Shown: positions 21,150 to 45,383 of the stretch, one piece after another | Position numbering within the stretch: the stretch's first letter is position 1 | How the letters are laid out: every line of letters begins with the position of its first letter | Assembly (NCBI GenBank): GCA_036558325.1 | Contig: DATBFU010000067.1 | Coordinates: forward strand, 5,536 to 69,535 | Direction of reading: 5' to 3' | From: Thermoanaerobaculia bacterium | GTDB lineage: Bacteria > Acidobacteriota > Thermoanaerobaculia > UBA5066 > Gp7-AA6 | DNA length: 64,000 nt | Position numbers and translations under genes: made by a program | Notes under the pieces: generated by a model | The model's input: only the letters and a program-made list of their open reading frames with translations | The model's database searches: none | What the model was told of the DNA's origin: nothing

Positions 21150-23117
<1,968 letters not shown>

Positions 23118-23152
23118 TCGGCGCGATTCGGCAGCCCGATTTCGGTCTTACA

Positions 23153-28653: not shown

Positions 28654-29784
28654 TCAGGCGTTCAGTCCCTGCCGCAGCTCCCGGGACAGGATCTCGACGG
28701 CCGACCGCGTCCCGCCGGTCATCTTTTCCTTCCAGACGGTGTCGGTCTCGAAGCGGCGGTCGCCGATGGATTCGGCCCACGGCCGCAGGGCGGCGTCGAG
28801 CTCGCTCGCCGACCAGACGTCGCCGCCGCGGCTGCGGGTCATGGCGATGACGTAAGGCACCGTCCGGATGAACGCGCGCAGCGCCGTCGAGCTCTTGATC
28901 GAGTATTTGCGGCCCGCAAACGCCGCCGGGAAGGCCTTCGCCGCCGCCTTGAAATAATTGAGGAAGAATCGGCGTGCGTTCTCGCGGAACTCCCGGGCGA
29001 TCCGTCCGCCGGCGGCATCCATCGCCGCGAAAACGTCGCGCAGCTCGTCCGCGAGCGATGCCTGGGTGACCGCGCCCTTGCCGATGCCGAGCACCTTGAT
29101 CTGACCCTTCAGCGGCGAGTGCTCGTCCTCGTTCAGCGCGCGGATGATGTCGTGCGCGGCGGCGAGGTTCTCGTCGCGGTAGAGGCGCCGTCCGGAGAGC
29201 GAGATCAGATGCGAAGGGTTGAGCTTGGTGTGCTTGCTGTTGATCGTCACGAAGAGCTCGACGACCTGATCCGGCGTCAGGGAATCGAAGACGACGGCCG
29301 GGACCTGGAAGTCCTTCAGGTTGTGCTTCTCCGCGAGCTGGTGCAGGGCGAGCAGCCGGTGCTGTCCGTCGAGCGCCCGCAGGATGCCGGACTCGTCCGG
29401 CAGCTTCAAGGTGCCGATGTCGTTGCGCGAGGCCGAGGAGGTGAAGTCGAGCCGCTTCTCGGACACGAGCAGCACGCTGCCGGGAATCGCCGGGAGCGTC
29501 CCGGAATCCGCGCACTGGAGGTAGTAGGCGACGAGCTCCTCGATCTTCTTCTGGATGATGGGCCGCTGGAACGCCTGCTCGGAGGCCGCGATCTTTTTCT
29601 CCAGGAACTCCCAGTTCACCCGGACTTCCTTGCCCTTGCGCGCGTGGGGCCGCGTGGTTTGCGAATGCGGCCCGAAGGAGAGGACCTCGAAGCCGACCAG
29701 GGTCTGGAGGTCGGCGCCGGACAGCAGAGCCTCGTAGAACCGCACGCCGAATTGGTTCAGCCGGAGCGAGGGAACAGACAGCAT
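28654..29784 (-). CDS. DGQHR domain-containing protein (DndB-like, ParB/Srx superfamily)
   Basis: Motif RALDGQHRLLALHQL. Second ATG (29782-29784) chosen because AAGGGGGG lies 7 nt upstream and the first ATG sits inside a TATAAT box. The stop is 4 nt before the lemA start. Confidence 0.8.
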   Translation of the reverse strand: MLSVPSLRLNQFGVRFYEALLSGADLQTLVGFEVLSFGPHSQTTRPHARKGKEVRVNWEFLEKKIAASEQAFQRPIIQKKIEELVAYYLQCADSGTLPAIPGSVLLVSEKRLDFTSSASRNDIGTLKLPDESGILRALDGQHRLLALHQLAEKHNLKDFQVPAVVFDSLTPDQVVELFVTINSKHTKLNPSHLISLSGRRLYRDENLAAAHDIIRALNEDEHSPLKGQIKVLGIGKGAVTQASLADELRDVFAAMDAAGGRIAREFRENARRFFLNYFKAAAKAFPAAFAGRKYSIKSSTALRAFIRTVPYVIAMTRSRGGDVWSASELDAALRPWAESIGDRRFETDTVWKEKMTGGTRSAVEILSRELRQGLNA

Positions 29785-29847
29785 CCGGATCCCCCCTTGT
29801 CGCGGGCGCATTATATGTAAGGGCCCGGCGAGGGCCCGGCCGGATCG

Positions 29848-30235: not shown

Positions 30236-31006
30236 GTGAAGGTCCATTTCGCGACGATTTTGGCGCTCGGGCTTCGGGTCTGGCTCGGGGCCGCCGGCAC
30301 CGCGTCGGCGGCGGAGGGGCCGGCCGATCGCGTCTATCCGTCCCACCTCATGGTGGATCAGGAGGTCGTGGTCGCCGCCCGGATCACCGGGATCGTGGAC
30401 GAGATCCTGGTCGATCGCGGGGCGTCCGTGGCCAAGGACCAGCCGCTCTGCCGCCTCGACGCCCGGGAGCTCGACGCCGAGGTCGCCGAGGCCAAGGAGC
30501 AGATGGACCTGAAGAAGCTCGAGCTCGAGCGGGCGAACCGGCTCTCCGACGGCAAGGTCCTTTCCGCGGCCGACCTCGACGAGAAGAAGGCCGAGTACCA
30601 GGTGGCGGTGGCGCAGTACGACCGCGTCCGGACCATGCGCGACTACACGGTGATCCGCGCGCCGTTCTCGGGCGTCGTGACCGAGAAATACGCGCGGGTG
30701 GGACAGAAGGTCATCGAGGATCGGGCGGAGCCGCTCTTCAAGATCACGGCCTCCGAGCCGCTCCTTGCGCGCGTGTACCTTCCCGAGGAGGATCTGCTCA
30801 AAGTGAAGCGCGGCGATCCGGTCGATGTGACCCTCGACCGGTTTCCGCGGGCGCGCGCGACCGGCACGGTCCAGTTTCTGAGCCCCACGGTCGACGCGGC
30901 GAGCGGCACCTTTCAGGTCGTCGTTCAGGTCCGACGCGACCCTTCGCTGCCGGAGCTGCGCCCCGGTGTGGCCGTGAAGGTGCACTTCCGCGGCTCGCGC
31001 AACTGA
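30236..31006 (+). CDS. HlyD-family periplasmic adaptor (membrane-fusion protein), short form with signal peptide
   Basis: GTG start. Signal MKVHFATILALGLRVWLGAAGTASA. Lipoyl-like and beta-barrel segments (VAARITGIVDEILVDRGASVAKDQPLCRLD...IRAPFSGVVTEKYARVGQKV). Confidence 0.75.
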   Translation: MKVHFATILALGLRVWLGAAGTASAAEGPADRVYPSHLMVDQEVVVAARITGIVDEILVDRGASVAKDQPLCRLDARELDAEVAEAKEQMDLKKLELERANRLSDGKVLSAADLDEKKAEYQVAVAQYDRVRTMRDYTVIRAPFSGVVTEKYARVGQKVIEDRAEPLFKITASEPLLARVYLPEEDLLKVKRGDPVDVTLDRFPRARATGTVQFLSPTVDAASGTFQVVVQVRRDPSLPELRPGVAVKVHFRGSRN

Positions 31007-31010
31007 GGGC

Positions 31011-31724
31011 ATGGCGGGCGGGCGCTCGTCGAAACGGCTGCGCGACGCGATCGATCGCGTCCTGATCCACGACATCAAGAACATGGGTTTCCGGCTGGAG
31101 ATGCTCCGGTCCAACCTGGACGAGCACTACGGCGAGCCCGAGTTCAAGCGCTCGGTCCAGGAGCTTCTGGCCGCGACCGTCGACCGGCTCGACAAGATCG
31201 TCGGACGCTTCGCGGCGCACGAGGACGCGGTCCTCATCAAGGTCGCGCTCGATCTGAACGCCCTGGTCCGCGACGTGGGCGACGCTCCGACGCGGCGCGG
31301 AGCGCGGCCGAGGCGCGCGGGAGGAGGCGAGCTCGGCCGGCTGTCTCTCGCCCTCGGAGAGGTGCCGCCGGTCTGGGGCGACCCGTACTATCTGCGCGAC
31401 GCGCTCGCGAGCCTCGTCGACAACGCGCTCGAGGCCGCCGGGCCGCCGGGCAAGGTTCTCGTGCGCAGCTTCGCGACCGGCAAAGGAGCCCGGCGGCGCG
31501 CCAACATCGAGATCATCGACAACGGCCCGGGCATGTCGGCCGACTTCGTCCGCGACCGCCTCTTCCAGCCGTTCCAGACGACCAAATCGGACGGCGTCGG
31601 CCTCGGCCTCTTCACGGCCAACCAGATCGTCCGCCACCACGGCGGGACCGTCCGTTTGAAGTCGCGCCCGGGGGAAGGCACGCTCGTCCGCCTGTCCTTT
31701 CCGGCGGTCCGGGCCGAGCCGTGA
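31011..31724 (+). CDS. sensor histidine kinase, cytoplasmic, no sensory or TM domain (HisKA+HATPase only)
   Basis: IHDIKN H-box. DNALEAA...IEIIDNGPGM...GVGLGLF are the N, G1 and G2 boxes. 237 aa. Confidence 0.8.
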   Translation: MAGGRSSKRLRDAIDRVLIHDIKNMGFRLEMLRSNLDEHYGEPEFKRSVQELLAATVDRLDKIVGRFAAHEDAVLIKVALDLNALVRDVGDAPTRRGARPRRAGGGELGRLSLALGEVPPVWGDPYYLRDALASLVDNALEAAGPPGKVLVRSFATGKGARRRANIEIIDNGPGMSADFVRDRLFQPFQTTKSDGVGLGLFTANQIVRHHGGTVRLKSRPGEGTLVRLSFPAVRAEP

Positions 31725-33097
31725 CGGCCGCCGAGGAACTGCCGCGGATCCTGATCGTCGAGGACGATCCCTTTCTCCTGGATCAGCTCCGTTTCGCGCT
31801 CTCGGGCCGGTTCGCCGTCACGGGAGCGCGCGACGCGACCGAGGGACGGGCGCATCTGGCGGGCGAAGCCGACGTCTATCTCTTCGACCTTCGCCTGCCG
31901 CCGTCCCACACCGTCGAAGAAGGCTTCGGCCTCCTTCGGGAGGTCCGGCGGCGCGACCCGGACGCCACGGTAGTCGTGATGTCCGGAGAGACCGAGCGGC
32001 GCGAGGCCCTGCGTGCGGTCGAGCTCGGCGCCTTCGACTTCTTTCGCAAGCCGGTGGACGCGGCCGAGCTGCTCGTCATCCTGACGCGCGCCCTCGAGCG
32101 CCGCCGTCTCCTCGCCGAGAATCGCACCCTGCGTCTGGAGACGAAGGCGCCCGGCCCCTTCGACCGGCTGGTGGGGGAGAGCTCCGTCATGCGCCGGCTC
32201 CTCGACGAGATCCGGCGGCTGGCGCCTTCCGACGCCACGGTGCTCGTCGTCGGCGAGAGCGGCACCGGCAAGGAGCTCGTCGCGCACGCGATCCACGACG
32301 GAAGCCCGCGCGCGAAACGTCCGTTCGTGGCCGTCAACGCCGCGGCGCTGCCGGAGGCGCTCGCCGAATCCGAGCTCTTCGGGCACGAGAAGGGAGCGTT
32401 CACGGGGGCCGTGTCGTCGCGCCCCGGCCGCTTCGAGCTCGCGGCCGGCGGAACGCTTTTCCTCGACGAGGTCGGGACGCTCTCGCCGGCGATCCAGGCG
32501 AAGCTCCTGCGCGCCATCGAGTCCCGTCAGATCGAGCGGGTCGGCGGACAGCGCACCATTCCGGTGGATCTGCGGCTCGTCTCGGCGACCAACGAAGACC
32601 TGGACGGCGCCGTCGCCCGCGGGAGCTTCCGCGAGGATCTCTATTACCGGATCAATACCGTGCCGATCCGAATTCCGCCGCTCCGCGAGCGGCTGGAGGA
32701 TCTGGAACCCCTGTCGGCGCACTTCCTCGCGAAGTACGGCGAGCGGCACCGGCGGCCCGGCCGGCGTCTCGGTTCGGGCGTCCTCGAGCGCCTGCGCCAG
32801 CATCCCTGGCGCGGCAACGTGCGGGAGCTCGAGCACGTGATCGAGATGCTGGTGCTCTTCTCCGACCAGGAGGAGATCGGTCCGGAGGACCTGCCGCGCG
32901 TGCTGCGCGACCGGGCGGGCGCGGCGTCGGGCCGACCAGCCGGCGGCCTGCCGTTCGCCAGGGCCGTCGAGGAGTTCGAGAAGAGCCTTCTCGCCCAGGC
33001 GATCGCCGACGCGGGAGGGGTCAAGGCCGAGGCCGCCCGAAGGCTGGGACTCGACGGCAACCAGATCAAGTACCTCTGCAGGAAATACGGCCTCTAG
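31721..33097 (+). CDS. sigma-54-dependent Fis-family response regulator (NtrC-type: REC + AAA+ + HTH)
   Basis: GTG overlaps the HK stop. ILIVEDD...D(54) REC, GESGTGKE Walker A, GAFTGA sigma-54 contact motif, C-terminal Fis HTH. Confidence 0.9.
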   Translation: MTAAEELPRILIVEDDPFLLDQLRFALSGRFAVTGARDATEGRAHLAGEADVYLFDLRLPPSHTVEEGFGLLREVRRRDPDATVVVMSGETERREALRAVELGAFDFFRKPVDAAELLVILTRALERRRLLAENRTLRLETKAPGPFDRLVGESSVMRRLLDEIRRLAPSDATVLVVGESGTGKELVAHAIHDGSPRAKRPFVAVNAAALPEALAESELFGHEKGAFTGAVSSRPGRFELAAGGTLFLDEVGTLSPAIQAKLLRAIESRQIERVGGQRTIPVDLRLVSATNEDLDGAVARGSFREDLYYRINTVPIRIPPLRERLEDLEPLSAHFLAKYGERHRRPGRRLGSGVLERLRQHPWRGNVRELEHVIEMLVLFSDQEEIGPEDLPRVLRDRAGAASGRPAGGLPFARAVEEFEKSLLAQAIADAGGVKAEAARRLGLDGNQIKYLCRKYGL

Positions 33098-33109
33098 CCG
33101 GGCGCCGGG

Positions 33110-33135
33110 GTTGAAGAATTCAACCGCCGGTTGAA
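33110..33135 (+). promoter_or_regulatory. putative enhancer (UAS) for the NtrC-type activator: GTTGAA-N3-TTCAAC inverted repeat plus a second GTTGAA
   Basis: gGTTGAAgaaTTCAACcgccgGTTGAAaaatc lies about 120 bp upstream of the sigma-54 promoter. An AT-rich bendable spacer (33140-33215) lies between. Confidence 0.35.
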
Positions 33136-33228: not shown

Positions 33229-33245
33229 TTGGTCCCAACCTTGCG
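33229..33245 (+). promoter_or_regulatory. sigma-54 (RpoN) promoter, -24 GG / -12 GC
   Basis: TTGGTCCCAACCTTGCG fits TGGYRYR-N4-TTGCW with exact GG-N10-GC spacing. It lies 33 nt upstream of the AAGGAGGG RBS and the ATG at 33278. Confidence 0.55.
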
Positions 33246-33277: not shown

Positions 33278-33805
33278 ATGGCGAACGAAGTGAGAATCAA
33301 GCTGACGGACGAGCAGAAGGCGAAGATCAAGGAAGCCACGGGCAAGGACATGCCGGAGATCCGGGTCGGCAGCCTCGGCGACAACCCCGCCCTCTCGGCG
33401 AAGACGGTCGCCCCGCACGCCTCGGCGCGCAACATCCACGCCGCCCGTAACGTCCAGGCGGCCCGTAACGTCCAGGCGGCCCGTAACGTCCAGGCGGCCC
33501 GCAACGTCCAGGCGGCCCGCAACGTCCAGGCGGCCCGAAACGTCCAGGCGGCGCGCAACGTCCAGGCCGCCCGCAACGTCGCGGCGGCGAAAAGCATCTC
33601 GGCAGCCAAGAACATCGCGGCAGCCAAGAACATCGCGGCGGCCAAGAACATCTCCGCGGCCAAGAACATCACGGCCGCCAAGACGGTCTCCCCGCGCAAC
33701 ATGGCCCGCAACCTGTCGGCCCGCAACGCGACGCGCAATCTCTCGGCGCGCAACGCGAGCCGGAATCTGTCCTCCCGCAACTCGACGCGCGGCACGACCA
33801 AGTAA
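33278..33805 (+). CDS. repeat protein of unknown function: about 45-aa N-terminal region followed by about 14 tandem hexapeptide repeats ([RK]N[IV]xAA) and 9-mer RNxxRNLSA repeats rich in N-x-S/T
   Basis: Strong RBS and ATG. 18-bp perfect and near-perfect DNA tandem repeats from about 33443. Sigma-54 promoter upstream, rho-independent terminator downstream. No homolog recognised. Confidence 0.7.
   Translation: MANEVRIKLTDEQKAKIKEATGKDMPEIRVGSLGDNPALSAKTVAPHASARNIHAARNVQAARNVQAARNVQAARNVQAARNVQAARNVQAARNVQAARNVAAAKSISAAKNIAAAKNIAAAKNISAAKNITAAKTVSPRNMARNLSARNATRNLSARNASRNLSSRNSTRGTTK
33443..33790 (+). repeat. in-frame tandem repeat tract (14 x 18 bp units GCCCGYAACGTCCAGGCG / GCCAAGAACATCGCGGCR, then 27-bp units)
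   Basis: The first three units are identical; later units drift. Entirely coding within 33278..33805. Confidence 0.85.
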
Positions 33806-33827
33806 CCTCGCGCCACCGGATCTTCGA

Positions 33828-33858
33828 GCGCCCCGCCTCGGCGGGGCGCTTTCTTTTT
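33828..33858 (+). terminator. rho-independent terminator (GCGCCCCGCC-tcg-GCGGGGCGC + TTTCTTTTT)
   Basis: Perfect 9-10 bp GC stem followed by a U-tract 22 nt after the repeat-gene stop. The stop codon of the convergent gene lies within the T-tract. Confidence 0.65.
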
Positions 33859-36080
33859 CACCAGAGGACGGTCTGGAGCCAGCGCTTCAGGACCCGGAAC
33901 GTGCTTCCGAGGACCGAGGCGCGGGGCCCGGAGATCTTGGCGAGCCCCGTCATTCCGGGCCGGAGCGAGCGGTCCGCGTTGTCGAACTCCGCCCGGGCGA
34001 CGAATCGGTCGGGACGAGCCGGCGGAGCGGACGGGTCGGCGGTGGACGAGGGCGTCGCGGGATGCTCGAGCGTCGCCGCCGAGACCTCGACGATCCGTCC
34101 ATGGGCGGGCCGAAGCGGCCGGCCCGGCAGCATGGCGGAGACCTCCTCGCCGACCTTCACGTCGTCGAGACGGCGTTCCGAGAAATCCAGGTCGGCGCGG
34201 AGCTTCCGCAGGTCGCCCACCTCGGCGAGCATCGTTCCGGCCAGGACGTGACGGCCGCTCCAGTCGGCGGTGCGCGCCGTCAGCACGGTCCCGGCGATCG
34301 GGCTGCGGACCACGAGCCTTTCCTGGCGGGCCCGATCGCTCGAGAGCTCCGATTCGACCGAAGCTCCCCGGCGCTCCGCCGCATACGCCAGCGCCGGATC
34401 GCTTTCGCCGCGCGCACGGTTCGCCTCCTTCTCGAGGTACCCGCGCTCGGCCGAGAGCTCCCGTCCGCGCGAAGCGAGGGCCGGGCTCGCGAGCCGAAAG
34501 ATGGGCTGGCCGGCCGCGACGACGTCGCCTTCGTTCGCCAGGACCTCGGCCACGACGGCGTTCTCCGGAGCTTCGAGGCGCGCCTCGGTCGAGGCCCGCA
34601 GCCGGATGTCGGTGCGGACCTTGCGATGCGTCCAGGGCACGAGGAGAACGACCGCGAGAAGAGCGACGCCCGCGAGCAGAGGCTTCCGGCTGCGGCTGGA
34701 CATGATGAGGTCCTTCTTGTCGAGATAGAAGAGACGGCCCGTCCGCGTCACGAGCCGGACGCGTTTGCGGAAGAGCCGCAGCAGCGTCAGGACCAGAAGC
34801 AGGACGGCGAGATTCGGGAAGTATTTCGAGTAGAAGTTGTAAAAGAGTCCGCCGATGAACGCCATCACGACGCCGATGTAGGCGAGCGCGAGCGGAGCGT
34901 AGATCCAGTAGATGCGCCGCTTGCGCCGCGAGGCCTCGGGGATCTCGACGGGCAGTCGCAGCACTTTCGCCTGGAAAAGGGCGCCGAGATATCGGAACGA
35001 CTCCTCCCGAAGCTCGGGGATCTCGAGGACGCTCGAGAGCGCGTAGTAGCCGTCGATCTTGATGAGCGGGTTGATGTTGAAGAAGACGGTCGACGCCCCC
35101 GTAAAGAGCATCGTCTTGTAGGCGAACTCGTTCAGGAAGCTGTCCGGATACGACACGACCCAGAGGAACGTCGCGGCGAAACAGATGAAACCTTCGATGT
35201 AGATGCCCGCGGTCGTGACCCAGAGCCGGTGCCATTTGCTCTCGAAGAGAAGCGAATCCGTCGTGTCGCAGTAGAAGGCCGGCGTGAAGTACAGGAGCGC
35301 GATGCCGATGTCGTGCACCTCGCCCCCGTAGAACTTCGTCGTGTAGGCGTGGGCGAACTCGTGGATGCATCCGATGATCGAGAGCAGGAGGAAGAACTGG
35401 ATCGCATCGAGCAGCGGCTTCTTCAGAAAGGCGTAAAGCTCGAGCGTGCCGGACCAGATCGGCTGCCAGTGCTGGACGAAGATGCCGACCGTCCAGAGCA
35501 CCGCGAGGCACCAGACGAGGACGACCGGAGGCGTCCAGATCCAGCGCACGTATTTCGCCGTGCGCACGAGGAATCGCTCGGGATCGAGCACGTGGAAAGG
35601 AATGAAGAAGATGTTGCGGCCCTCGGCCTTCTCCTCCGCGGCGCGCTGGCGCGCGGTCTTGGCCCGGGCGAGCAGCTGGAGGTTGCGTTCGGCCACGCCC
35701 TGCTCGATGAGGTCGACCTTCCGGAGCATTTCCTCGAAGTCGAGGACGAGCGTCGCCGAGATCTCGTCCCGCGGGAACTCGCGCCGGTAGTCCTCGAGGA
35801 TCTCCGTTCGCGTCCGTGTGCCGTCGAAGAGCTGGATGAGGCCCCACTCGGCGTCCGAGAAGTTGTAGTACTTGATCGTCTCGGGGTTCTTCACCACCCA
35901 CGTGACTTCGCCCATCTGGACGACGCGGCGGATGACGAGGTCGCCTCGGAGGGCGGGCCGGTCGCCGGCGGCGCCGTGCTTTTCCGCGAGCGCGGCGGCC
36001 GCGTCCCCCGTGCGGGCGGCGAGGAGGCCCCCGGGCCGCGCGCTCAGGGCAGGAGCGGCCAGACCTTTCTCCAGAGCCAT
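33858..36080 (-). CDS. tri-domain fusion: PqqD-like RiPP recognition element + S2P/M50 intramembrane zinc metalloprotease + HlyD-like periplasmic adaptor domain
   Basis: N-terminal PALRGDLVIRRV...YNFSDAEWGLIQLFDGTRTRTEILEDY is PqqD-like. HEFAH zinc motif in a TM helix and NPLIKIDGYY (S2P NPDG-type motif). C-terminal TM then the lipoyl/beta-barrel region (VVAEVLANEGDVVAAGQPIFRLAS...VVRSPIAGTVL). No stop between domains. ATG 36078-36080 overlaps the upstream gene by 37 nt; alternative ATG 35915. Confidence 0.7.
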   Translation of the reverse strand: MALEKGLAAPALSARPGGLLAARTGDAAAALAEKHGAAGDRPALRGDLVIRRVVQMGEVTWVVKNPETIKYYNFSDAEWGLIQLFDGTRTRTEILEDYRREFPRDEISATLVLDFEEMLRKVDLIEQGVAERNLQLLARAKTARQRAAEEKAEGRNIFFIPFHVLDPERFLVRTAKYVRWIWTPPVVLVWCLAVLWTVGIFVQHWQPIWSGTLELYAFLKKPLLDAIQFFLLLSIIGCIHEFAHAYTTKFYGGEVHDIGIALLYFTPAFYCDTTDSLLFESKWHRLWVTTAGIYIEGFICFAATFLWVVSYPDSFLNEFAYKTMLFTGASTVFFNINPLIKIDGYYALSSVLEIPELREESFRYLGALFQAKVLRLPVEIPEASRRKRRIYWIYAPLALAYIGVVMAFIGGLFYNFYSKYFPNLAVLLLVLTLLRLFRKRVRLVTRTGRLFYLDKKDLIMSSRSRKPLLAGVALLAVVLLVPWTHRKVRTDIRLRASTEARLEAPENAVVAEVLANEGDVVAAGQPIFRLASPALASRGRELSAERGYLEKEANRARGESDPALAYAAERRGASVESELSSDRARQERLVVRSPIAGTVLTARTADWSGRHVLAGTMLAEVGDLRKLRADLDFSERRLDDVKVGEEVSAMLPGRPLRPAHGRIVEVSAATLEHPATPSSTADPSAPPARPDRFVARAEFDNADRSLRPGMTGLAKISGPRASVLGSTFRVLKRWLQTVLW

Positions 36081-38464
36081 CGGGCGGGCTTGCGCAGGAG
36101 CAGCGTCGCGATGCTTCGCCGGCCGGCCCAGACCTTTCCCGTGCCGACCATTCCCGTCTTGAGCGCTCCGCCCGGGTTCTCGGCGCGGACCTCGGCGATG
36201 AGGAACCGGTTGTCGCCCTCCTCCCGGACGCGGGCGCCGAGGCGCATCACCGAGCCCGGGAACGTCCGCGTCGGATACGGGTTGATCTTCAGGGCGACCC
36301 GCTGCCCGACGGCGACGAGCGCCGCGTCCGCCTCGGGCACGGCGACCTCGGCCGTGACGGTGCCCGCGTCGGCGACGACGGCAAGCTCGTCGCCGCGATG
36401 AAAGAACTGGCCGACCCGCTCCTCGATCCGCGGCGTCACGATGACGCCGGAGGCCGGCGCGGTCAGGCGCGTTCGCGCGAGCTCTTCCTTCGCGAGGGCG
36501 ACGCGCGCGTCGAGCTCGTCGCGCCGCGACTGCGCCTCGAACATGCGGGCGGAATCGCCCGCCTCCCGGTAGCGCGCGACGTCGCTCGAAGCGATCGCAA
36601 GGTCCGCCTGCGCGTCGGCCAGGCGCGCCGCGTACGCCTCGTCCTTGAGCGTCGCGATGACCTCGCCCGCGGCGACGTGGTCGCCCTCGTGCTTCTGCAC
36701 CGAAGCGAGGACGCCGTCCACGCCGGCCGTCACCGAGCCGCGCGAGGCCGGGCGGACGCGGGCCGGCCCGGCGATGCGCAGCCGCCACGGAACGACACAG
36801 AGGAGCAGGGCGGCCGCGAGGCCCCCGATCCAGACCGCGCGGCGGCGCTTCGGAGCCTCGCCGAGCGCACGGCGTTTGGCCGCGAGCGGTTTCCAGAAGC
36901 CCACGAGCGGCACCTGGCGGTAGAGCTGCGCGTTGCGGACGGCCACGGTCGCCTGGTTGACGAGGATCTGGAGCAGGTCGCGCGTCTCGCCGTCGAAGAC
37001 GAGGGGATCCCTGCTCTCGAACGCGAGCACGCCGAGCTTGCCCTCCTCGTCGGCGAGAAGGGCGGCATGAAACGAGCGCAGGCCCGTCTCCTCGAAGACG
37101 GCGCGGAACTTCTCTTCGGTCTCCGGACGGTCCGCCGTCAGCGCGCCGTCGGGCGTCTGGGTCACCGAGACGTTTTGGCCGGAGAAGAAGACCCACTGGA
37201 GCAGCTCCTCGAGCCGCTTGACCTCGGGCTTCGAGCGGTCGACCTCGTTGGCGCCGGAGATCGCGCCGAGCCGCATCTTTCCCTTCTCGAGGATACCGAT
37301 CGCGCAGCGGTCGTACGTGATGAGCGCCGCCGTCGCGTTGACGATCGTCTGCATGACCTTGTCGAGATCGAGGGTCGCCGTGATCTCCCGGCTCACGGCG
37401 AGAAGGGCGTCGAGCTCTTCAACCTTTTTCTCCGCCTCGTGCTGGCGCGCGGTGCGCAGCGCGCGGACGGCCTGCCGCGCGACGTCCTGGAGCAGCTCCT
37501 CGTCCTCGGGCGCGAACTCGGGATGTCGCCCGCGCTTGTTCGCGAGCACGAGCGCTCCGACCGAAGCCTGCTCCTCGATGAGCGGCACGGCCAGGACGGA
37601 GCGGATCGGGTAGCCGTCGACCTCGGCGGCCAGAGGATCGTCGTCCGGGATCCGATTCCTCCGCAGCGCGCTCTGTTCGGCCAGGACGTCTCCGGCGATC
37701 GACGCGCCGACGGCTTCGGGCGCGGGCGAGATCTCGTAGTTGTCGTTGATCGCCGTCGCGGCGAGGGTCGCGTCGTCGCCCGAGAGGAGCCAGAGCGATC
37801 CGGTCTCAGCCGTCGCGAAGTCGACCGCCTTGCGGACGATCAGCGCCGCGAGCTCCTGCGGCACGATCGTGCCCCCGAAGGCCTTCGAGAGGTCGTAGAG
37901 GTTCGTGAGCCGCTCGATGGCGCGGAGCATCCCGACGGTCTTGCGCTCGGCGCGCAGGGCCCGGCCGAGCGCCGGCGCCGCGTCTTCGAGAAAGCCCGAG
38001 AGCCGCGCGAGCGCCGCATCGGGGTCCTGGCGCCGCCGGAAGAGGAGCACGAGGAGCGCGACGACGAAGCCCTCGGCTTCGAGGGGTAGAGCCACCGCGA
38101 TCTCGGTCCCCGCGGGCATCCCGCGGAGGAACGGGTCGTCGGCCGCGGCGAGCTCCGAGCGCTCGAGCGCGATCGCATGTCGGTCCCGGACGAGCTCCCA
38201 GGCCACCCCCGAATCCCGCGGCACCGAGCGTCGGCGGAAGCCGTCGGTGCCCTCGCCCGCGTTGCCGATGCACAGAAAGAGGGGATGAACGGTGTCCGGC
38301 GCCCAGAGGAGCGCGCCGTCGGCCTGGGCCATCTCGGCGCTCCACCGGGCCGCCCAGCCGGAGGTCTGAGAGAGGTTCTCGCAGAGCGCGAGCTCCGCGA
38401 GCGCCGAGACGGGGCGTTCCCCGTCGTGCCCCTCCGGGCCCCCTCCCTCCGGCTCGTCGGGCAT
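36044..38464 (-). CDS. three N-terminal GAF domains + TM + HlyD-family adaptor domain protein
   Basis: AGGAGA RBS. Three GAF-like blocks in residues 1-520, one TM (AVWIGGLAAALLLCVVPW), then the HlyD lipoyl/beta-barrel region (GVDGVLASVQKHEGDHVAAGEVIATLKDEAY...RLTAPASGVIVTP). Confidence 0.75.
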   Translation of the reverse strand: MPDEPEGGGPEGHDGERPVSALAELALCENLSQTSGWAARWSAEMAQADGALLWAPDTVHPLFLCIGNAGEGTDGFRRRSVPRDSGVAWELVRDRHAIALERSELAAADDPFLRGMPAGTEIAVALPLEAEGFVVALLVLLFRRRQDPDAALARLSGFLEDAAPALGRALRAERKTVGMLRAIERLTNLYDLSKAFGGTIVPQELAALIVRKAVDFATAETGSLWLLSGDDATLAATAINDNYEISPAPEAVGASIAGDVLAEQSALRRNRIPDDDPLAAEVDGYPIRSVLAVPLIEEQASVGALVLANKRGRHPEFAPEDEELLQDVARQAVRALRTARQHEAEKKVEELDALLAVSREITATLDLDKVMQTIVNATAALITYDRCAIGILEKGKMRLGAISGANEVDRSKPEVKRLEELLQWVFFSGQNVSVTQTPDGALTADRPETEEKFRAVFEETGLRSFHAALLADEEGKLGVLAFESRDPLVFDGETRDLLQILVNQATVAVRNAQLYRQVPLVGFWKPLAAKRRALGEAPKRRRAVWIGGLAAALLLCVVPWRLRIAGPARVRPASRGSVTAGVDGVLASVQKHEGDHVAAGEVIATLKDEAYAARLADAQADLAIASSDVARYREAGDSARMFEAQSRRDELDARVALAKEELARTRLTAPASGVIVTPRIEERVGQFFHRGDELAVVADAGTVTAEVAVPEADAALVAVGQRVALKINPYPTRTFPGSVMRLGARVREEGDNRFLIAEVRAENPGGALKTGMVGTGKVWAGRRSIATLLLRKPARWLWRKVWPLLP

Positions 38465-38483: not shown

Positions 38484-38819
38484 CTAGAAGCTCAGGACGG
38501 CTTTCTCCAGATCGTCATGAATCTCGAAGACCGAATCGAGCTTGGTCATCTCGAGGAGCTTGCGAACCTGGGGGCCGGCGTTCACGAGCTTCGTCTGTCC
38601 GCCTTCCTTCTGCGAGATGGTCAGCGCGCGCACGAGGGCGCCGAGCCCCGAGCTGTCGAGGAAACCGACCCGGCCGAGATCCACGAGCAGGTGGATGCGG
38701 CCGTCTTCCAGGAGATGGGTGACCGTTCTCTTGAAGTTGGACTCGGCTTCGCCGATGACCAGATCGCCGACGACGGTCAGGACCGTGACCCGCCCGTCCT
38801 CTCTCGTCGTGAGCTCCAT
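38484..38819 (-). CDS. STAS-domain anti-sigma factor antagonist (SpoIIAA-like)
   Basis: 111 aa. GFLDSSGLGALV with the conserved phosphorylatable Ser. 19 nt upstream of the GAF-HlyD gene. Confidence 0.85.
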   Translation of the reverse strand: MELTTREDGRVTVLTVVGDLVIGEAESNFKRTVTHLLEDGRIHLLVDLGRVGFLDSSGLGALVRALTISQKEGGQTKLVNAGPQVRKLLEMTKLDSVFEIHDDLEKAVLSF

Positions 38820-38904
38820 GAAAGCGGCGACATTATGTCGGAAACGCCCTTCTCGTCCAAGGCCCGCCGGACGGGCGCCGGAACTATGATCCGCCCGTGC
38901 GGCG

Positions 38905-39120
38905 ATGAAGTCGGCGCGGACCGCCGATCACGAGGTGGCGGAGGTCGTGCTGCGGCAGGAGCCCGCGGTCGGCGGCCGTGTCACGGTGCGCGGCCCCGTC
39001 GGCGCGGAGGGGGAGTGGATCGTGATCGACCGGCGGCCCGACCCGCACGGATGGCGCGTCACGGCGGTGCGTTGTCTCGCGGCCTGCCGGGAGCATTCTG
39101 GAGCCGACGACCGGACTTGA
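38905..39120 (+). CDS. questionable small ORF (71 aa) overlapping the 3' end of the tRNA
   Basis: ATG ORF in the 280-bp gap between the STAS gene and the tRNA. Overlaps the tRNA by 22 nt. No domain recognised. Confidence 0.15.
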   Translation: MKSARTADHEVAEVVLRQEPAVGGRVTVRGPVGAEGEWIVIDRRPDPHGWRVTAVRCLAACREHSGADDRT

Positions 39121-39174
39121 ACCGGTGACCTGCGGTTTACGAAACCGCTGCTCTACCGACTGAGCTACGTCGGC
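39099..39174 (-). tRNA. tRNA-Thr (anticodon CGU)
   Basis: Cloverleaf by hand. Acceptor GCCGACG/CGTCGGC, D-arm GCTC-AGTCGGTA-GAGC, anticodon arm GCGGT-TTCGTAA-ACCGC, T-arm ACCGG-TTCAAGT-CCGGT, encoded CCA. 76 nt. Confidence 0.9.
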
Positions 39175-42817: not shown

Positions 42818-43136
42818 CAGTTCCTGAAATTTAGCAAAAGCCCCTCACCATCGCCACAAAATCTTGTGGTTGGGCCGGTCGGCCTCCCCTACGAATGGGA
42901 ATCCGGGCGGGCGGTCACGGGGGGTCGGATTGTCCACCCTCGGGACACCGTCTTCCGGCCTCGGGAGACCTTCGGGGCGCCGCCGGCCTGCCTCCTTCCC
43001 GAGCGCGTTTTTGACGGTCGGTTGACGGATTTCGTCCCCGGGCCATTGTGTTTTCGCTGCACATCCGAACAAGATTCTTGTTCACCGGGGGCCCGGAAGA
43101 GAGTAGATTCCAAAAGGCGAACTCGAAAGCGACAAG

Positions 43137-44249
43137 ATGCTTAGCCTTGAGGTCCGTAAGAGAACGGGCGGCGCGGAAGTCCACCGCGTCAACTCGCCGG
43201 CCCTGACCGTCGGCGCGTCTTCGGGCAACGAGGTCGTCGTGCGCGCGCGCGGCGTCGCGGGCAGGCACTTCCGCATCCTGGAGCGCGACGGCCGCTATCA
43301 CCTCGATCTCTACAAAGGCGTCGACGCCGTGAGCGTCAACGGCCGCGAGTTCACCGGCGGTCCGATCGCGGTCGGCGACCGCATCACGATCGGGGAAGCG
43401 ACGCTGACGGTGCTCGGGGGCCGCGCCGGGCTGCGCACGGCGGTCCTGCCCGAGCCCGCGCGTCCGGAGCCGGTGCGCTTCGAGCCGCAGGTGGCCCCGG
43501 GAACTCTTCTGCAGGTCACCACGGGTCCGATGACCGAGGTGGAGTACCGCACGCTGCGGCTCTCGACCTACGCCCTCTGCCGTTCGAGCCGCTCGCCGGA
43601 GGACTTCGCCGCGCGCCTCGTGGATCTGCTCGACCGCGAGCTGCCGCCGTCCGAGTGGGCCGTGGGTCAGTGGACGCCGGGCGGCGGTTTCCGGCCGTGG
43701 TCCTCGACGTTCCGTGAAGCGCCCGCCTTGCCGCAGAAACTCCTCGCCGACGCCCGCGAGGGAGAGCGCCTCGCGCGCGTCGACACGGTGACCGGGATGT
43801 TCAGCTTCCTGACGGAGCCCGATGTGGAGCCGGGCGACCCGGCGGCGGCGATCTTCGTCCGCGAGGATCCGCGACTGGCCGCCCGCGCGCTGCTCTTCCT
43901 CGAGGAAGTCGTGCAGCTCGCGGGTCTCGTCCTGCGCAAAGCCGGCGGCGCCCTCGAAGAGGAAGAGGATGTTCTCGTCGCGGAGCCGGCCGTCTCGACC
44001 GCGGAGCCCGCGGCTCCGCCATCCGGCAGCGAGATGGAGGCGACGCTCCGACGCACCGACGACCTGAAGAAGATCATCGAGTCCGTCGAGCGAGAGGTCA
44101 TCGACCGCACGATGCGCCGCGTCGAGGGCAATCAGAGCCGTGGCGCGCAGAACCTCAACATCTCGCGCGGCTCGCTCATCGCGAAATTGAAGGATTACGG
44201 GATTCCGGACTACCGATATCTTCGGCGCGAGCGCAACCGCCGGGTGTGA
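43137..44249 (+). CDS. FHA-domain transcriptional regulator with C-terminal Fis-type HTH
   Basis: N-terminal FHA-like VGASSGNEVVVRARGVAGRHFRILERDGRYHLDLYKGVDAVSVNG. C-terminal QSRGAQNLNISRGSLIAKLKDYGI HTH. Confidence 0.7.
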   Translation: MLSLEVRKRTGGAEVHRVNSPALTVGASSGNEVVVRARGVAGRHFRILERDGRYHLDLYKGVDAVSVNGREFTGGPIAVGDRITIGEATLTVLGGRAGLRTAVLPEPARPEPVRFEPQVAPGTLLQVTTGPMTEVEYRTLRLSTYALCRSSRSPEDFAARLVDLLDRELPPSEWAVGQWTPGGGFRPWSSTFREAPALPQKLLADAREGERLARVDTVTGMFSFLTEPDVEPGDPAAAIFVREDPRLAARALLFLEEVVQLAGLVLRKAGGALEEEEDVLVAEPAVSTAEPAAPPSGSEMEATLRRTDDLKKIIESVEREVIDRTMRRVEGNQSRGAQNLNISRGSLIAKLKDYGIPDYRYLRRERNRRV

Positions 44250-44259
44250 GAGCCGGCCG

Positions 44260-45383
44260 CTAGCGTCGCTTCTTTCTTTCTCTCCCTCTCTCCGACTCGC
44301 CGTCCCCCCGCAGCCACCACCAGATCGCGAACGGCGCCGCGAATCGCCCGGCCACCTCGTAGAAGTGAAATCCGCCCGTCCAGAAGTTGCGGGCGGCGCT
44401 CCCGTAATGCGCGGCGCTCCAGGCCCCGAGGGCCGTCGCATAAACCGAGCGCACCTGGAACACGAGCGCGGCGGTCTGGACGGCGAAGAGCGCGAGGCAT
44501 GCGAGGAGGAACGCGGCGACGCGCCTTCCGCCGAGCGGGTGTGGATCGAGCGCGAAGAGGGCGGCGAGCAGAACCAGGTTGAAGTGAAGGTCCGCGGCGG
44601 GCAGACCGGGCCGCGGCGCGCCCGGCGGAAAGTCGGCGCGCTCGACGAGAATCTCTCCGTCCCGGGCCTCCAGGCGGGTGACCGCGGGCCGCTCGGTCGC
44701 GCGGAGGATCGACTCGCCGGCCGCGGCGAGGACGCCCTCGTAGGCGGCGCGGAATCCGAACCAGAACGCCAGGGCGAGGGCGAAGCCGGCGAGCGCCCGC
44801 GCGATCGCGGCGCGCCCGATTCGGGCGCTCGCGGGAGTCGGGGCCAAGGCCGCCGCGCGGCCGGGAGGAGCGGCGTCGTGCGCGCCCGGGCCGCCCACGA
44901 GAGGAAGAGCAGCACGCCGAAGAGAACGACGAAGGACTGCCAGAGAACGGTGTGGGACGCGGAGAAGAGCGCGGGCCGATGGACTCCGATCCAGAAGAGC
45001 GAGACGACGCGGACGAGGTTCACGAGCTCGATCGCGGCGAATCCCAGGAGAAGCCCCGCGAGGCGCCGCTTCCAGGGCGCCGGGAACGCGAACACGGCGG
45101 CGGCGAAGAGGAGCACCGTCTCGAGCCCGTTGCAGCCGTTCTCGATCCGGACGGCGAATGAAGGGGACCGAATCTCGGTTCCGGACACGGCGGCCGGCTC
45201 GCCGAGCGCGTTGAGGATCGCGCCGGAGACGCGCGCGATCGCGGAGGTGAAGGGTACGACGGCCGTCCGGTCCACCGGCCGGACCGCGACGGCGACGTAG
45301 AAGAGGACGAGGAGAGCGCCGAAACGCGCGAGGAAGGCGAGGGACTCCCGCCGGGACGAGGCGGAGTCCGCGGCGCGCTTCAC
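44260..45383 (-). pseudogene. exosortase/archaeosortase-family integral membrane protein, apparently frameshifted near 44880-44900 (or two adjacent membrane-protein genes)
   Basis: Frame A (45383 to about 44880) carries the exosortase-like RIENGCNGLETVLLF Cys motif and the IELVNLVRVV Asn/Arg motif. Frame A then has no stop until 42915. Frame B (GTG 44898 to 44260) encodes a further TM-rich region. GTG 45381-45383 overlaps the thioesterase stop. Confidence 0.4.

Follow-up and report, generated by a model that had tools for sequence, protein, structure and literature searches.

A conserved fusion of an RRE, a site-2 protease and a HlyD-type adaptor domain, encoded beside a candidate leader-repeat substrate in an acidobacterium

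Relation to described peptide proteases and adaptor systems

Only very recently have RRE-guided site-2 proteases entered peptide natural-product biology. A precedent is the daptide protease MpaP/DapP, in which an N-terminal RRE joined to a site-2 protease (S2P) removes the daptide leader (Ren et al. 2023, PMC10036551). Here we describe a protein encoded in a 64,000-nucleotide stretch of acidobacterial DNA (the window) that shares with MpaP/DapP an RRE at the N-terminus and, after it, an M50/S2P core containing a HExxH motif and a distal Asp. The similarity spans both RRE and protease, with residues 59-438 aligning to the NCBIfam model daptide_HExxH (NF041824) at E=3e-46, and RRE-guided leader removal is the presumed job. 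In contrast to MpaP/DapP, which come from actinomycete or Bacillus hosts, the window protein belongs to a diderm acidobacterium and has, in addition, one more TM helix and a periplasmic MFP domain of 255 aa. In daptide precursors the leader has ELExMEAP and the C-terminal residue is Thr (PMC10036551), whereas the candidate peptide in the window differs in its leader and lacks a C-terminal Thr. None of the daptide enzymes MpaB, MpaC, MpaD and MpaM is encoded nearby, the neighbours being STAS, GAF-HlyD, HlyD, kinase and sigma-54 activator genes. Given this wrong gene context and a score of 158.3 bits, far under the 300-bit equivalog cut-off, we rejected the assignment as a daptide protease equivalog.

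The window protein also resembles EpeP/YydH, LiaK and TglG/TmoG (pearlin), which are membrane M50 metalloproteases that process ribosomal peptides, and EpeP is thought to cleave and export its own peptide (PMC10885120). Unlike the window protein, none of these has an adaptor domain in the NCBIfam models or literature we examined, and no radical-SAM epimerase is encoded in the RRE-M50-HlyD locus. The YydH/LiaK model (NF058609) matched residues 227-359 only, at E=3.6e-11 and 43 bits against a cut-off of 225, and membership of that family was rejected on this low score and the wrong context.

In diderms, a leader peptidase physically coupled to an MFP conduit for a ribosomal peptide is already found in exporters that combine a peptidase-containing ABC transporter, a HlyD adaptor and TolC, such as CvaB-CvaA-TolC (PMC10352776). 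The window system differs from these in having a zinc S2P instead of a C39 cysteine peptidase, an adaptor fused to the peptidase and two more adaptor paralogues, and in lacking both an ABC ATPase and a double-glycine leader. In other S2Ps, extramembrane domains added to the core, together with partner proteins, control access to it or its activity, as appears to be the arrangement here: RseP has periplasmic PDZ domains, and SpoIVFB has a cytoplasmic CBS domain and the partners SpoIVFA and BofA. An MFP domain is, to our knowledge, not known as an S2P accessory domain. The substrates of RseP and SpoIVFB are transmembrane anti-sigma or pro-sigma proteins that have already undergone a site-1 cut, whereas the peptide proposed as substrate here lacks a TM segment and is inferred to be recruited by the RRE. 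The presence of more than one MFP paralogue per assembly recalls TriA/TriB of TriABC-OpmH, a hetero-oligomeric adaptor pair that serves an RND pump; in contrast to that system, no pump is encoded here, and all but one of the three adaptors have large domains in the cytoplasm or membrane.

An intact gene with a conserved three-domain architecture

The gene for the RRE - S2P (M50) - TM anchor - HlyD/MFP protein occupies 33858..36080 on the minus strand, and its translation gives 740 sense codons with a single stop, at the end. It starts at an ATG at 36080 and overlaps by 37 nt the GAF-HlyD gene upstream, whose TGA stop lies at 36044-36046. According to the ORF listing, the frame remains open farther upstream to 37196, but this added part, rich in Arg, Gly and Pro, merely overprints the GAF-HlyD gene and is not conserved; all alternative in-frame starts would lose a conserved N-terminal segment. 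A database search returned 594 homologues at E<1e-5, the top 120 of which are 631-757 aa long with mostly end-to-end coverage of the query. The full-length AlphaFold model has a mean pLDDT of 82.5. This is one genuine, intact gene, and its fusion is conserved across hundreds of homologues of about 730 aa.

The possibility that two genes (M50 and HlyD) had been joined by a missed stop or frameshift, an assembly or sequencing artefact, rests only on its having been raised a priori by the original prediction. Against it, the uninterrupted architecture recurs in hundreds of independent assemblies from varied projects and technologies, the junction is strongly conserved as protein sequence, and all ten tested distant representatives (27-41% identity) also carry the fusion. 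Because homologues keep the fusion, with the junction among their best-conserved segments, the M50-HlyD fusion is not an assembly artefact; the conserved junction and the hundreds of fused homologues rule this reading out with next to no residual doubt. Thus the single ORF without a stop at the junction, the three domains and the 37-nt overlap claimed in the original prediction all held. Of the checks it had called for, that of the junction (34650-34760) ended with the artefact worry removed by protein conservation, that of fused versus split homologues found only fusions in the ten distant relatives, and the topology prediction gave seven TM segments, N-in and C-out. Its placement of the PqqD match in the N-terminal 90 residues failed, as the domain is present but lies at residues ~45-125.

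The segment preceding the RRE is an extension of 44 residues (35949..36080, minus strand; residues 1-44) that includes the 37-nt overlap with the GAF-HlyD 3' end. It has low pLDDT (31-56) in the AlphaFold model, and from about residue 10 it carries the conserved motif LLAAxxxxxxAxALAxRHGAxxDRPALR. The RRE itself, a PqqD-like winged helix (35706..35948, minus strand), is predicted to be cytoplasmic and meets the fold criterion of a three-stranded antiparallel sheet followed by three helices. Pfam PF05402 is the best match of this region, covering profile positions 2-66 of 67, at 15.8 bits (E=0.017) under a cut-off of 23.4; the same model matched 14 of 34 homologues, with a best E of 7.5e-5. Membership is therefore predicted from the model at the level of fold and not of curated sequence, and leader binding is only inferred, on indirect support.

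The membrane core (residues 167-437; 34770..35582, minus strand), delimited from Pfam, NCBIfam, secondary structure and hydropathy, has six predicted TM helices and a re-entrant beta-hairpin at residues 258-271. Pfam Peptidase_M50 (PF02163) matched residues 229-336 with 26.1 bits, just below its cut-off of 27.2, and scored 27-32 bits in distant homologues. The zinc-binding, catalytic motif HEFAH (residues 240-244; 35349..35363, minus strand) sits within helix 223-250 of the model, as required of a HExxH motif in a TM helix, and H240, E241 and H244 are invariant across 62 sequences. The second M50 motif, NxxPxxxxDG, is met by NPLIKIDG (residues 337-344; 35049..35072, minus strand), in which N337, P338, L339, D343 and G344 are invariant, N337, P338 and D343 being so in 62 homologues; D343 is the presumed third zinc ligand. 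The pattern N-x2-P-x3,4-DG was present in 135 of 154 related representatives. These motifs and the NCBIfam similarity identify the core as a site-2 protease, while its proteolytic activity is inferred from sequence.

A basic, cytoplasmic helix with 7 K/R among 22 residues (residues 438-461; 34698..34769, minus strand) joins the protease to the adaptor. The stretch at residues 437-465, F-R-K-R-V-R-L-x-x-R-T-x-R-L-F-Y-L-D-K-K-x-L-x-M-S, is among the family's most conserved, and R440, R442, L443, R446, T447, L450, Y452-K455, M460 and S461 are invariant in the homologue alignment. It leads into a seventh TM helix (residues 462-485; 34626..34697, minus strand), supported by a hydropathy peak at 467-485 and a model helix at 462-480, which is predicted to anchor the adaptor domain N-in and C-out. 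With seven hydrophobic segments and a K/R-rich loop before the last of them, hydropathy and the model together predict a seven-TM inner-membrane protein with its N-terminus inside and its C-terminus outside.

The periplasmic HlyD/MFP domain (residues 486-740; 33861..34625, minus strand), identified by Pfam and Foldseek, comprises a lipoyl/barrel-sandwich, a short alpha-hairpin at 533-588 and a beta-barrel, and this combination behind an N-terminal membrane anchor satisfies the definition of an MFP. HlyD_D23 matched residues 496-667 (63 bits, cut-off 30) and HlyD_3 residues 590-677 (54 bits, cut-off 22.2), and Foldseek returned MacA, MexA, AcrA, ZneB and EmrA with E-values from 3e-14 to 1e-11. 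Neither TIGR01730 (RND_mfp; 58.4 bits, cut-off 94.9) nor TIGR01843 (type I HlyD; 38.7 bits, cut-off 208.65) was reached by the fusion protein. Adaptors dock TolC-type channels through a hairpin-tip motif, R-x3-L-x6-S/T (RLS), and this motif is missing from the fused HlyD hairpin in 61 of 62 family members, being present in one. We also considered that the protein is an ordinary efflux-pump adaptor with an incidental N-terminal membrane domain. Database names such as 'efflux RND transporter periplasmic adaptor subunit' and 'HlyD family efflux transporter periplasmic adaptor subunit' imply this, and the HlyD Pfam and TIGR01730 similarities are in its favour. However, 485 of the 740 residues form an RRE and an S2P with invariant catalytic residues, the TIGR models remain sub-threshold, no pump gene was found nearby and the RLS motif is absent; this reading is very unlikely, and we rejected assignment as a canonical efflux adaptor.

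Conserved neighbourhood and the convergent repeat peptide

The fusion gene is the third of a row on the minus strand, an operon that opens with genes for a STAS-domain protein (38484..38819; Pfam STAS, 71.6 bits) and a GAF-GAF-TM-HlyD protein (36044..38464; 806 aa). The latter, the upstream partner, matches GAF_2, GAF, GAF_3, HlyD_3 and HlyD_D23 in Pfam, its GAF part being cytoplasmic. Converging on this row from the plus strand are genes for a small secreted HlyD/MFP paralogue (30236..31006; 256 aa, signal peptide), a soluble histidine kinase without TM or sensor domain (31011..31724; 237 aa, Pfam HATPase_c), a sigma-54-dependent response regulator (31721..33097; Sigma54_activat, 234 bits, with further matches to Response_reg and HTH_8 around its AAA+ domain) and a peptide. 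The kinase and regulator genes are syntenic, and the module order was kept in essentially all of 80 related loci of sufficient length (49-89% identity). The GAF-HlyD gene adjoins the fusion gene in essentially all of these and in distant loci, where the STAS gene is also conserved. The small HlyD scores above the RND_mfp cut-off (151.7 bits) and has an RLS-type hairpin-tip motif (RANRLSDGKVLS), which was found in 60 of its 62 orthologues. The three MFP domains are full-length paralogues with 23-28% identity, and the trio recurs in a planctomycete and in Terriglobia, where the small HlyD gene lies between those for GAF-HlyD and M50-HlyD.

No ABC, RND or MFS transporter, ATPase or TolC-like gene was found in the window neighbourhood. 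The conserved core of nine annotated loci likewise held no transporter, ATPase or TolC-like gene, and the conserved synteny of the 80 loci no cognate inner-membrane transporter (ABC, RND or MFS). Among individual loci, a MacB-type permease gene lies ~4 kb away in L085, an MFS gene adjoins the small HlyD of L086, and FHA-GAF-PP2C phosphatases are encoded in L086 and L087. Since it encodes no modifying enzymes, the locus does not qualify as a classical RiPP cluster. PADLOC gave no match to the module proteins except generic AAA+ similarity of the sigma-54 activator, and we rejected a known anti-phage defence system on that basis. The locus is vertically inherited beside the housekeeping genes LemA, HtpX, tRNA-Thr and SMC.

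The convergent peptide gene (33278..33805, plus strand) encodes 175 aa, recognized by its tandem repeats and its orthologues, and is the candidate substrate. Its conserved leader of ~40 aa (MANEVRIKLTDEQK...) precedes repeats of six residues (AARNVQ, AAKNIx, ARNxS). The orthologues, from 68 related loci, share this architecture, the leader being conserved, the repeats hypervariable and the C-terminus variable. Across 66 orthologues the leader is 70-99% conserved per column, with the consensus MANEV[KR]IKLTD[AE]QKAKIKEATGKD.PEIRV.S.G.NPA, and the tails have unrelated repeat units with periods of 3 to 24 residues. The leader has no Pfam or NCBIfam family match, and the peptides are annotated 'hypothetical protein'; the sole NCBIfam match to the peptide, EntB, was dismissed as a low-complexity artefact.

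A leader motif, I-x-L-T-[DE]-E-Q-[KR]-x-x-[IMV]-[KR]-x-A-x-G, also occurs beside M50-HlyD genes of only 31-35% identity (once each in L084, L086 and L087 and twice in L085), such that leader-bearing peptide and enzyme co-occur across 31-89% enzyme identity. This co-occurrence over deep divergence is the strongest argument for the peptide as ligand of the RRE enzyme, for which there are no binding data. A scan of L081-L083 did not find the strict motif; in these and other Terriglobia loci the small peptides are Lys-rich, belong to another family and lack the LTDEQK leader, and the RRE-leader pairing is therefore not uniform.

A sigma-54 -24/-12 promoter element, TGGTCCCAACCTTGC (33230..33244, plus strand), lies 48 nt upstream of the peptide ATG, and TGG-N9-TGC was present at the equivalent position in 68 of 69 loci. 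Farther upstream is the palindrome GGTTGAAGAATTCAACC with a further GGTTGAA half-site (33109..33135, plus strand), and a perfect GGTTGA-N(4-8)-TCAACC palindrome precedes the promoter in 19 loci; this could be a binding site for the activator, a possibility inferred from sequence alone. Between the convergent genes, a GC-rich hairpin (33826..33851; 11-bp stem, 9 GC pairs, then TCTTTTTC) is followed by a T-run on the plus strand. It overlaps no coding sequence, lies 7 nt from the M50-HlyD stop and is likely a plus-strand terminator for the peptide gene.

The composition of the tails bears on a reading in which maturation is cytoplasmic only: the leader would be removed as by MpaP, the repeat polypeptide would act inside the cell, for example as a basic nucleic-acid- or polyanion-binding protein, and the HlyD domain would merely oligomerize or localize the protease. 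In support, the tails are very hydrophilic, mostly polycationic (net positive in 57 of 66) and rich in Ala, Arg, Lys, Ser and Thr, some being histone-H1-like (AKP or PLAK repeats), export machinery is absent, and MpaP is a precedent as a plain leader peptidase. However, net acidic tails (8 of 66; DDALR, GDQEALRA, NSADLA) and unrelated repeats between species argue against one conserved intracellular target, and the strict co-conservation of three periplasmic adaptor paralogues is left unexplained. We consider this reading unlikely.

Proposed function and extent of the family

The function we favour is leader-guided cleavage of the neighbouring peptide coupled to a three-adaptor periplasmic assembly, an inference to which we give slightly less than even odds. 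In this model, the cytoplasmic RRE would capture the conserved N-terminal leader of the convergently encoded small protein and present the peptide to an S2P active site (HEFAH ... NPLIKIDG) facing the cytoplasmic leaflet, where the leader would be cut away from the variable repeat region. The C-terminal HlyD/MFP domain, projecting into the periplasm on its own TM anchor, would assemble with the GAF-GAF-TM-HlyD protein and the small secreted HlyD with its RLS tip motif, and this assembly would tie cleavage either to the product's crossing of the envelope or to signalling from periplasm to cytoplasm. The adjacent kinase and sigma-54 activator would control substrate supply through the conserved -24/-12 promoter, and the GAF and STAS components may gate the machine. 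The peptide as substrate, the cut position, the three-adaptor complex and any export are all inferred, without binding, cleavage or localization data.

An export route would have no identified channel or energy source, as the locus has no linked gene for a transporter, an ATPase or an outer-membrane channel, and the lack of a canonical TolC-docking motif in the fused hairpin also speaks against export. Because the tails are hydrophilic and mostly polycationic, unassisted passage through or past the S2P core against the membrane potential would be physically awkward. Vertical inheritance beside housekeeping genes is more in keeping with a physiological or regulatory role than with a bacteriocin.

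It remains possible that the system is a regulated-proteolysis signalling device without export, in which the RRE-S2P would degrade or activate a cytoplasmic peptide within a kinase/sigma-54 feedback loop. The HlyD domains of the fusion and of GAF-HlyD would then serve periplasmic sensing or scaffolding, much as the PDZ domains do in RseP or as SpoIVFA and BofA do for their partner SpoIVFB. This reading is supported by the GAF, STAS, input-less kinase and sigma-54 activator components and by the phosphatases in L086 and L087, as well as by the missing transporter, ATPase and outer-membrane factor, the degenerate fused hairpin, the vertically inherited core locus and tails that would be hard to export passively. 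Against it, three full-length MFP paralogues are conserved with hairpin, lipoyl and beta-barrel, the small HlyD keeps its tip motif, and the contrast between a conserved leader and a hypervariable C-terminal region is one typical of exported peptides. The RLS motif is a hallmark of outer-membrane channel docking, and a purely sensory role for MFP domains is not known to have been documented.

Coupled cleavage, our preferred reading, has a bolder form, which we think rather more apt to be wrong than right. The RRE-S2P-HlyD protein would be the inner-membrane core of an unrecognized, ATPase-less apparatus for peptide processing and secretion, or for trans-envelope signalling, in which three MFP paralogues would serve sigma-54-controlled leader-repeat substrates cut into many copies of short peptides. 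Such an apparatus would be widespread in Acidobacteriota and present in Planctomycetota. It would amount to a self-regulating, species-private peptide signalling or surface-conditioning system, with a logic like that of agrBDCA and entirely different parts.

The joining of a recognition and cleavage unit to a periplasmic adaptor in diderms suggests that cleavage may be linked directly to transit of the envelope or to envelope signalling with no peptidase-ABC transporter involved. The linked peptides form an unannotated precursor family in which the leader and the sigma-54 promoter are conserved while the repeats are hypervariable. They offer a testable substrate for how an S2P handles a soluble, RRE-delivered peptide, and may reveal a new peptide signal or envelope component in abundant, poorly cultured soil Acidobacteriota.

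The original prediction had called the architecture unusual, which held in part. The RRE-S2P fusion is already known from the daptide protease MpaP (PMC10036551), whereas the conserved triple fusion in soil Acidobacteria appears to be undescribed. We found no description of it in the literature searched, including the graspetide, Bacteroidales and RiPP-protease literature examined; subscription journals were mostly outside this search, and absence is not proof. In sequence databases, the triple fusion is abundant. The RRE-M50 part was matched by 9,958 clusters at 50% identity (E<=0.001), and of 154 sequences retrieved for the cluster representatives with the best scores, 104 were at least 660 aa long. 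The family is routinely misnamed as an efflux RND transporter periplasmic adaptor, and for a misannotated family of this size a correct name matters for genome mining. One database protein, from a JGI metagenome, is 100% identical to the window protein.

Reading frame and integrity of the fusion

Translation of 33858-36080 on the reverse strand gave 740 residues followed by a single terminal stop, and the original prediction that one ORF encodes a PqqD-like RRE, a site-2 protease (S2P) and an HlyD adaptor therefore held, there being no internal stop. The frame is open upstream as far as 37196, where it forms an Arg/Gly/Pro-rich overprint of the GAF-HlyD gene (806 aa, 36044-38464, reverse strand) with no counterpart in homologues. 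The ATG at 36080, which lies 37 nt ahead of the TGA of this directly upstream gene, is the only in-frame start that preserves the conserved N-terminal segment, and the predicted 37-nt overlap was thus also upheld.

A search of 5.8 billion proteins recovered 594 homologues of RRE-M50-HlyD (E<1e-5), the best 120 of which were 631-757 aa long and mostly covered the query over its whole length. One protein from a JGI metagenome was a 100%-identical copy. The name given by JGI is 'putative peptide zinc metalloprotease protein'; NCBI uses 'efflux RND / HlyD family ... periplasmic adaptor subunit', and the named sources are Thermoanaerobaculia and Acidobacteriota. In a 17-sequence alignment (56-87% identity), the junction between M50 and HlyD was among the most conserved stretches, with invariant R440, R442, L443, R446, T447, L450, Y452, L453, D454, K455, M460 and S461. 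We additionally used aa 1-470 as the query in an exhaustive HMMER search of 1.84 billion 50%-identity cluster representatives, which returned 9,958 matches at E<=1e-3, of which 1,541 also passed E<=1e-30. Sequences fetched for the best matches were at least 660 aa long in 104 of 154 cases, and most of the shorter ones were fragment-like.

The original prediction had raised the possibility of a missed stop or frameshift at the junction (34650-34760) and had proposed comparing fused with split homologues. All ten distant representatives (27-41% identity) carried both the M50 and the HlyD Pfam domains, two of them with a PqqD match as well (E~3e-4). Given the conservation of the junction, the full-length homologues and these ten fused representatives, we rejected an assembly artefact joining M50 and HlyD with near certainty, and the junction concern was not borne out.

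Domain architecture and predicted topology

The catalytic motifs HEFAH and NPLIKIDG occupy aa 240-244 and 337-344. Pfam searches placed Peptidase_M50 at aa 229-336, just short of its cut-off (26.1 against 27.2 bits), HlyD_D23 at aa 496-667 (63 bits) and HlyD_3 at aa 590-677. When aa 41-150 were searched alone, the top Pfam match was PqqD (E=0.017, profile positions 2-66 of 67), which was also matched by 14 of 34 homologous domains (best E=7.5e-5). A family profile searched against PDB sequences likewise had X. campestris PqqD as its top match, albeit a weak one (E=0.33), and when aa 40-165 were modelled with AlphaFold on the basis of 34 sequences, the first 90 residues of the model had a pLDDT of ~90 and the elements followed the order b1-b2-b3-a1-a2-a3. 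Together these results show that the N-terminal domain is an RRE, related to PqqD at the level of fold. The original assignment to PqqD was thus correct as to fold, and its placement in the first 90 residues was not, the domain spanning aa ~45-125.

The full-length AlphaFold model, built from 62 sequences (mean pLDDT 82.5), places a long linker helix (aa 129-152) after the RRE, followed by transmembrane helices that include the one bearing HEFAH (aa 223-250), a re-entrant beta-hairpin typical of S2P (aa 258-271), a helix terminating at NPLIKIDG and two more transmembrane helices. A basic helix (aa 438-460) then precedes the last transmembrane helix (aa 462-480) and a C-terminal membrane fusion protein (MFP) module comprising a lipoyl domain, a hairpin (aa 533-588) and a beta-barrel. 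In Foldseek comparisons with the PDB, this C-terminal part matched MacA, MexA, AcrA, ZneB and EmrA (E 3e-14 to 1e-11). Topology prediction, a check suggested alongside the original call, revealed seven hydrophobic segments with a K/R-rich loop preceding the last, and on the basis of the model and hydropathy we predict an N-in/C-out arrangement, with the RRE and active site on the cytoplasmic side of the membrane and the HlyD domain on the periplasmic side.

Membership in curated equivalog families was rejected, since all NCBIfam scores were below cut-off: daptide_HExxH matched aa 59-438 at E=3e-46 (158 bits, cut-off 300), YydH/LiaK at E=3.6e-11 (43 bits, cut-off 225), RND_mfp at 58 bits (cut-off 95) and type_I_hlyD at 39 bits (cut-off 209). 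PADLOC gave no match for the protein.

A conserved module and its repeat peptide

Relatives were sought in one genome per GTDB species, yielding 105 stretches that encode one, of which 80 loci were kept; the handles L001-L089 denote such loci, L081-L089 including distant ones. All came from Thermoanaerobaculia or Acidobacteriota MAGs except L068 (JBLMYG010000459.1), a complete module binned as 'Acidithiobacillales'. As the other 79 loci are Acidobacteriota or Thermoanaerobaculia, this contig is probably mis-binned.

Using tblastn with the window's neighbours, we found a single gene order in practically all sufficiently long loci (49-89% identity): STAS, GAF-GAF-HlyD and RRE-M50-HlyD, converging on the repeat peptide, a sigma-54 response regulator, a histidine kinase and a small HlyD. 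The same parts are retained in relatives of 31-35% identity. Loci of Sulfotelmatobacter/Acidiferrales type encode STAS, GAF-HlyD, small HlyD, M50-HlyD, small ORFs and a sigma-54 activator, and a planctomycete locus retains M50-HlyD, small HlyD and GAF-HlyD. The window's three HlyD domains are full-length paralogues of 23-28% identity. The small HlyD (30236-31006, forward strand) lacks a membrane anchor and carries a signal peptide together with a conserved RLS-type hairpin-tip motif, RANRLSDGKVLS; it is the first gene of an operon with the 237-aa histidine kinase (31011-31724, forward strand), which lacks transmembrane and sensor domains. On the other side, a tRNA-Thr(CGT) gene (39099-39174, reverse strand) separates an SMC gene from the STAS-GAF-HlyD-M50-HlyD operon, for which no promoter was identified in 38820-39098. 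In some distant versions, an FHA-GAF-SpoIIE (PP2C phosphatase) gene adjoins the kinase (L086 8948-10543 and L087 12758-14404, both reverse strand), which suggests that the conserved STAS protein could be regulated by partner-switching phosphorylation.

The convergent repeat peptide gene (33278-33805, forward strand; ribosome-binding site AAGGAGG) encodes 175 aa. The N-terminus of the product is free of repeats, and after it come hexapeptide units that recur every 18 nt in the gene. The interval separating this gene from that of the protease contains a GC-rich hairpin with a T-run (33826-33851). The peptide family has orthologues in L002-L080, L084, L086 and L087. Among orthologues recovered from 68 loci, conservation is high over the first ~40 residues (consensus MANEVKIKLTDAQKAKIKEATGKDMPEIRVESLGSNPAVS; invariant M1, V5, L9, T10, Q13, I17, T21, G22 and E27). 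The remainder consists of species-specific tandem repeats with periods of 3 to 24 residues, whose units, including AARNVQ, GRAAGKSIA, PRANT, ARAQT, PLAK, ATK, GDQEALRA, DDALR, NSADLA and EQGLK, are unrelated between orthologues. The tails are composed of Ala (27%), Arg (13%), Ser (11%) and Lys (8.5%) among others, lack Cys and Trp, and have a positive net charge in 57 of 66 cases and a negative one in 8. All matches to the leader profile were unannotated 'hypothetical' proteins, many cut off at contig ends. In three MFD-series MAGs (L001, L003 and L054) the ORF extends 194-572 aa into out-of-frame sequence, most likely reflecting indel errors inside the repeats, and automated annotation of this family should be treated with corresponding caution.

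The leader motif I-x-L-T-[DE]-E-Q-[KR]-x-x-[IMV]-[KR]-x-A-x-G is also encoded beside distant M50-HlyD genes, in a 227-aa repeat-containing peptide (L084), in peptides with QALKGRAVAKR repeats (L086) or an AAK-rich tail (L087), and in two of 51 and 55 aa without repeats (L085). Terriglobia-type loci instead carry genes for one to four small Lys-rich peptides of 26-48 aa that belong to another family, such as MAKKLKKSKKLESNKTLVTVPGVYKG, MAKKLKKSKKL... and MAVKKGKKGTKL... (L088 10245-11161, L089 10335-10436 and L081 ~10687-10770, reverse strand; L087 5222-5320, forward strand). Candidate sigma-54-like TGG-N9-TGC elements precede several of these (L081, L088, L089).

Ahead of the repeat peptide, 68 of 69 loci have a sigma-54 -24/-12 element (TGG-N9-TGC, typically TGGCCCC....CTTGCGAT) ~45 nt 5' of the ATG; in the lone exception, L017, the two promoter blocks are one base further apart. 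The window's element, TGGTCCCAACCTTGC (33230-33244, forward strand), is 48 nt from the ATG. Between the activator gene and this promoter lies a palindrome, GGTTGAAGAATTCAACC (33109-33125), followed by a GGTTGAA half-site (together 33109-33135, forward strand). Since 19 related loci share a perfect palindrome of the form GGTTGA-N(4-8)-TCAACC, it is likely, as inferred from sequence, to be an activator-binding site.

Possible roles of the module

The RRE-S2P-MFP protein is conserved with intact catalytic motifs and a predicted N-in/C-out topology, and it co-occurs strictly with two more MFP paralogues, STAS, a kinase/sigma-54 activator pair and a leader-bearing peptide gene whose sigma-54 promoter is recognized by sequence. 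We propose that the RRE would bind the repeat-peptide leader and the S2P would cleave the peptide, although we have no binding or cleavage data, and that the HlyD domains may build a periplasmic assembly linking cleavage to export, both assembly and export being inferred. By this inferred activity the protein is likened to MpaP, the RRE-fused S2P of daptides, as an RRE-guided RiPP leader peptidase, and its logic is similar to that of peptidase-ABC/MFP/TolC bacteriocin exporters.

A serious and possible rival is regulated proteolysis or signalling, with HlyD domains serving as modules in the periplasm and the cytoplasmic gates being GAF, STAS and PP2C. Several points against a canonical conduit keep this rival in play. 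The R-x3-L-x6-S/T hairpin-tip motif occurs in only 1 of 62 fused HlyD hairpins, the peptide tails are hydrophilic and polycationic, inheritance of the locus is vertical and its neighbours include housekeeping genes, and pump, ATPase and channel are unlinked to the module. Neither the core shared by the annotated loci nor the flanks of the window encode any ABC, RND or MFS transporter, any ATPase or any outer-membrane factor; the exceptions outside the core are L085, with a gene for a MacB-type permease at a distance of ~4 kb, and L086, with an MFS gene adjoining the small HlyD. However, the R-x3-L-x6-S/T motif is kept in 60 of 62 small secreted HlyD orthologues, which supports a conduit and speaks against signalling alone.

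The component parts and the RRE-S2P pairing were already known. Neither the fusion of an S2P with an MFP domain nor the three-adaptor module was described in the literature searched, which excluded most subscription journals; within that scope, what appears to be new is the joining of the adaptor to the protease, the setting of three MFPs without a transporter, and peptides under sigma-54 control that combine a leader with hypervariable repeats.

ORFs with an exosortase (EpsH) domain (959 aa, 42915-45794, reverse strand) and a C-terminal EAL domain (1001 aa, 21317-24322, forward strand) lie outside the conserved module. No dnd genes were seen near a 385-aa DndB-like (DGQHR) protein (28654-29811, reverse strand). 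This protein is 82-98% identical across related loci, where its neighbours are only 50-70% identical; so high a degree of conservation is unusual in a protein whose role is unknown.
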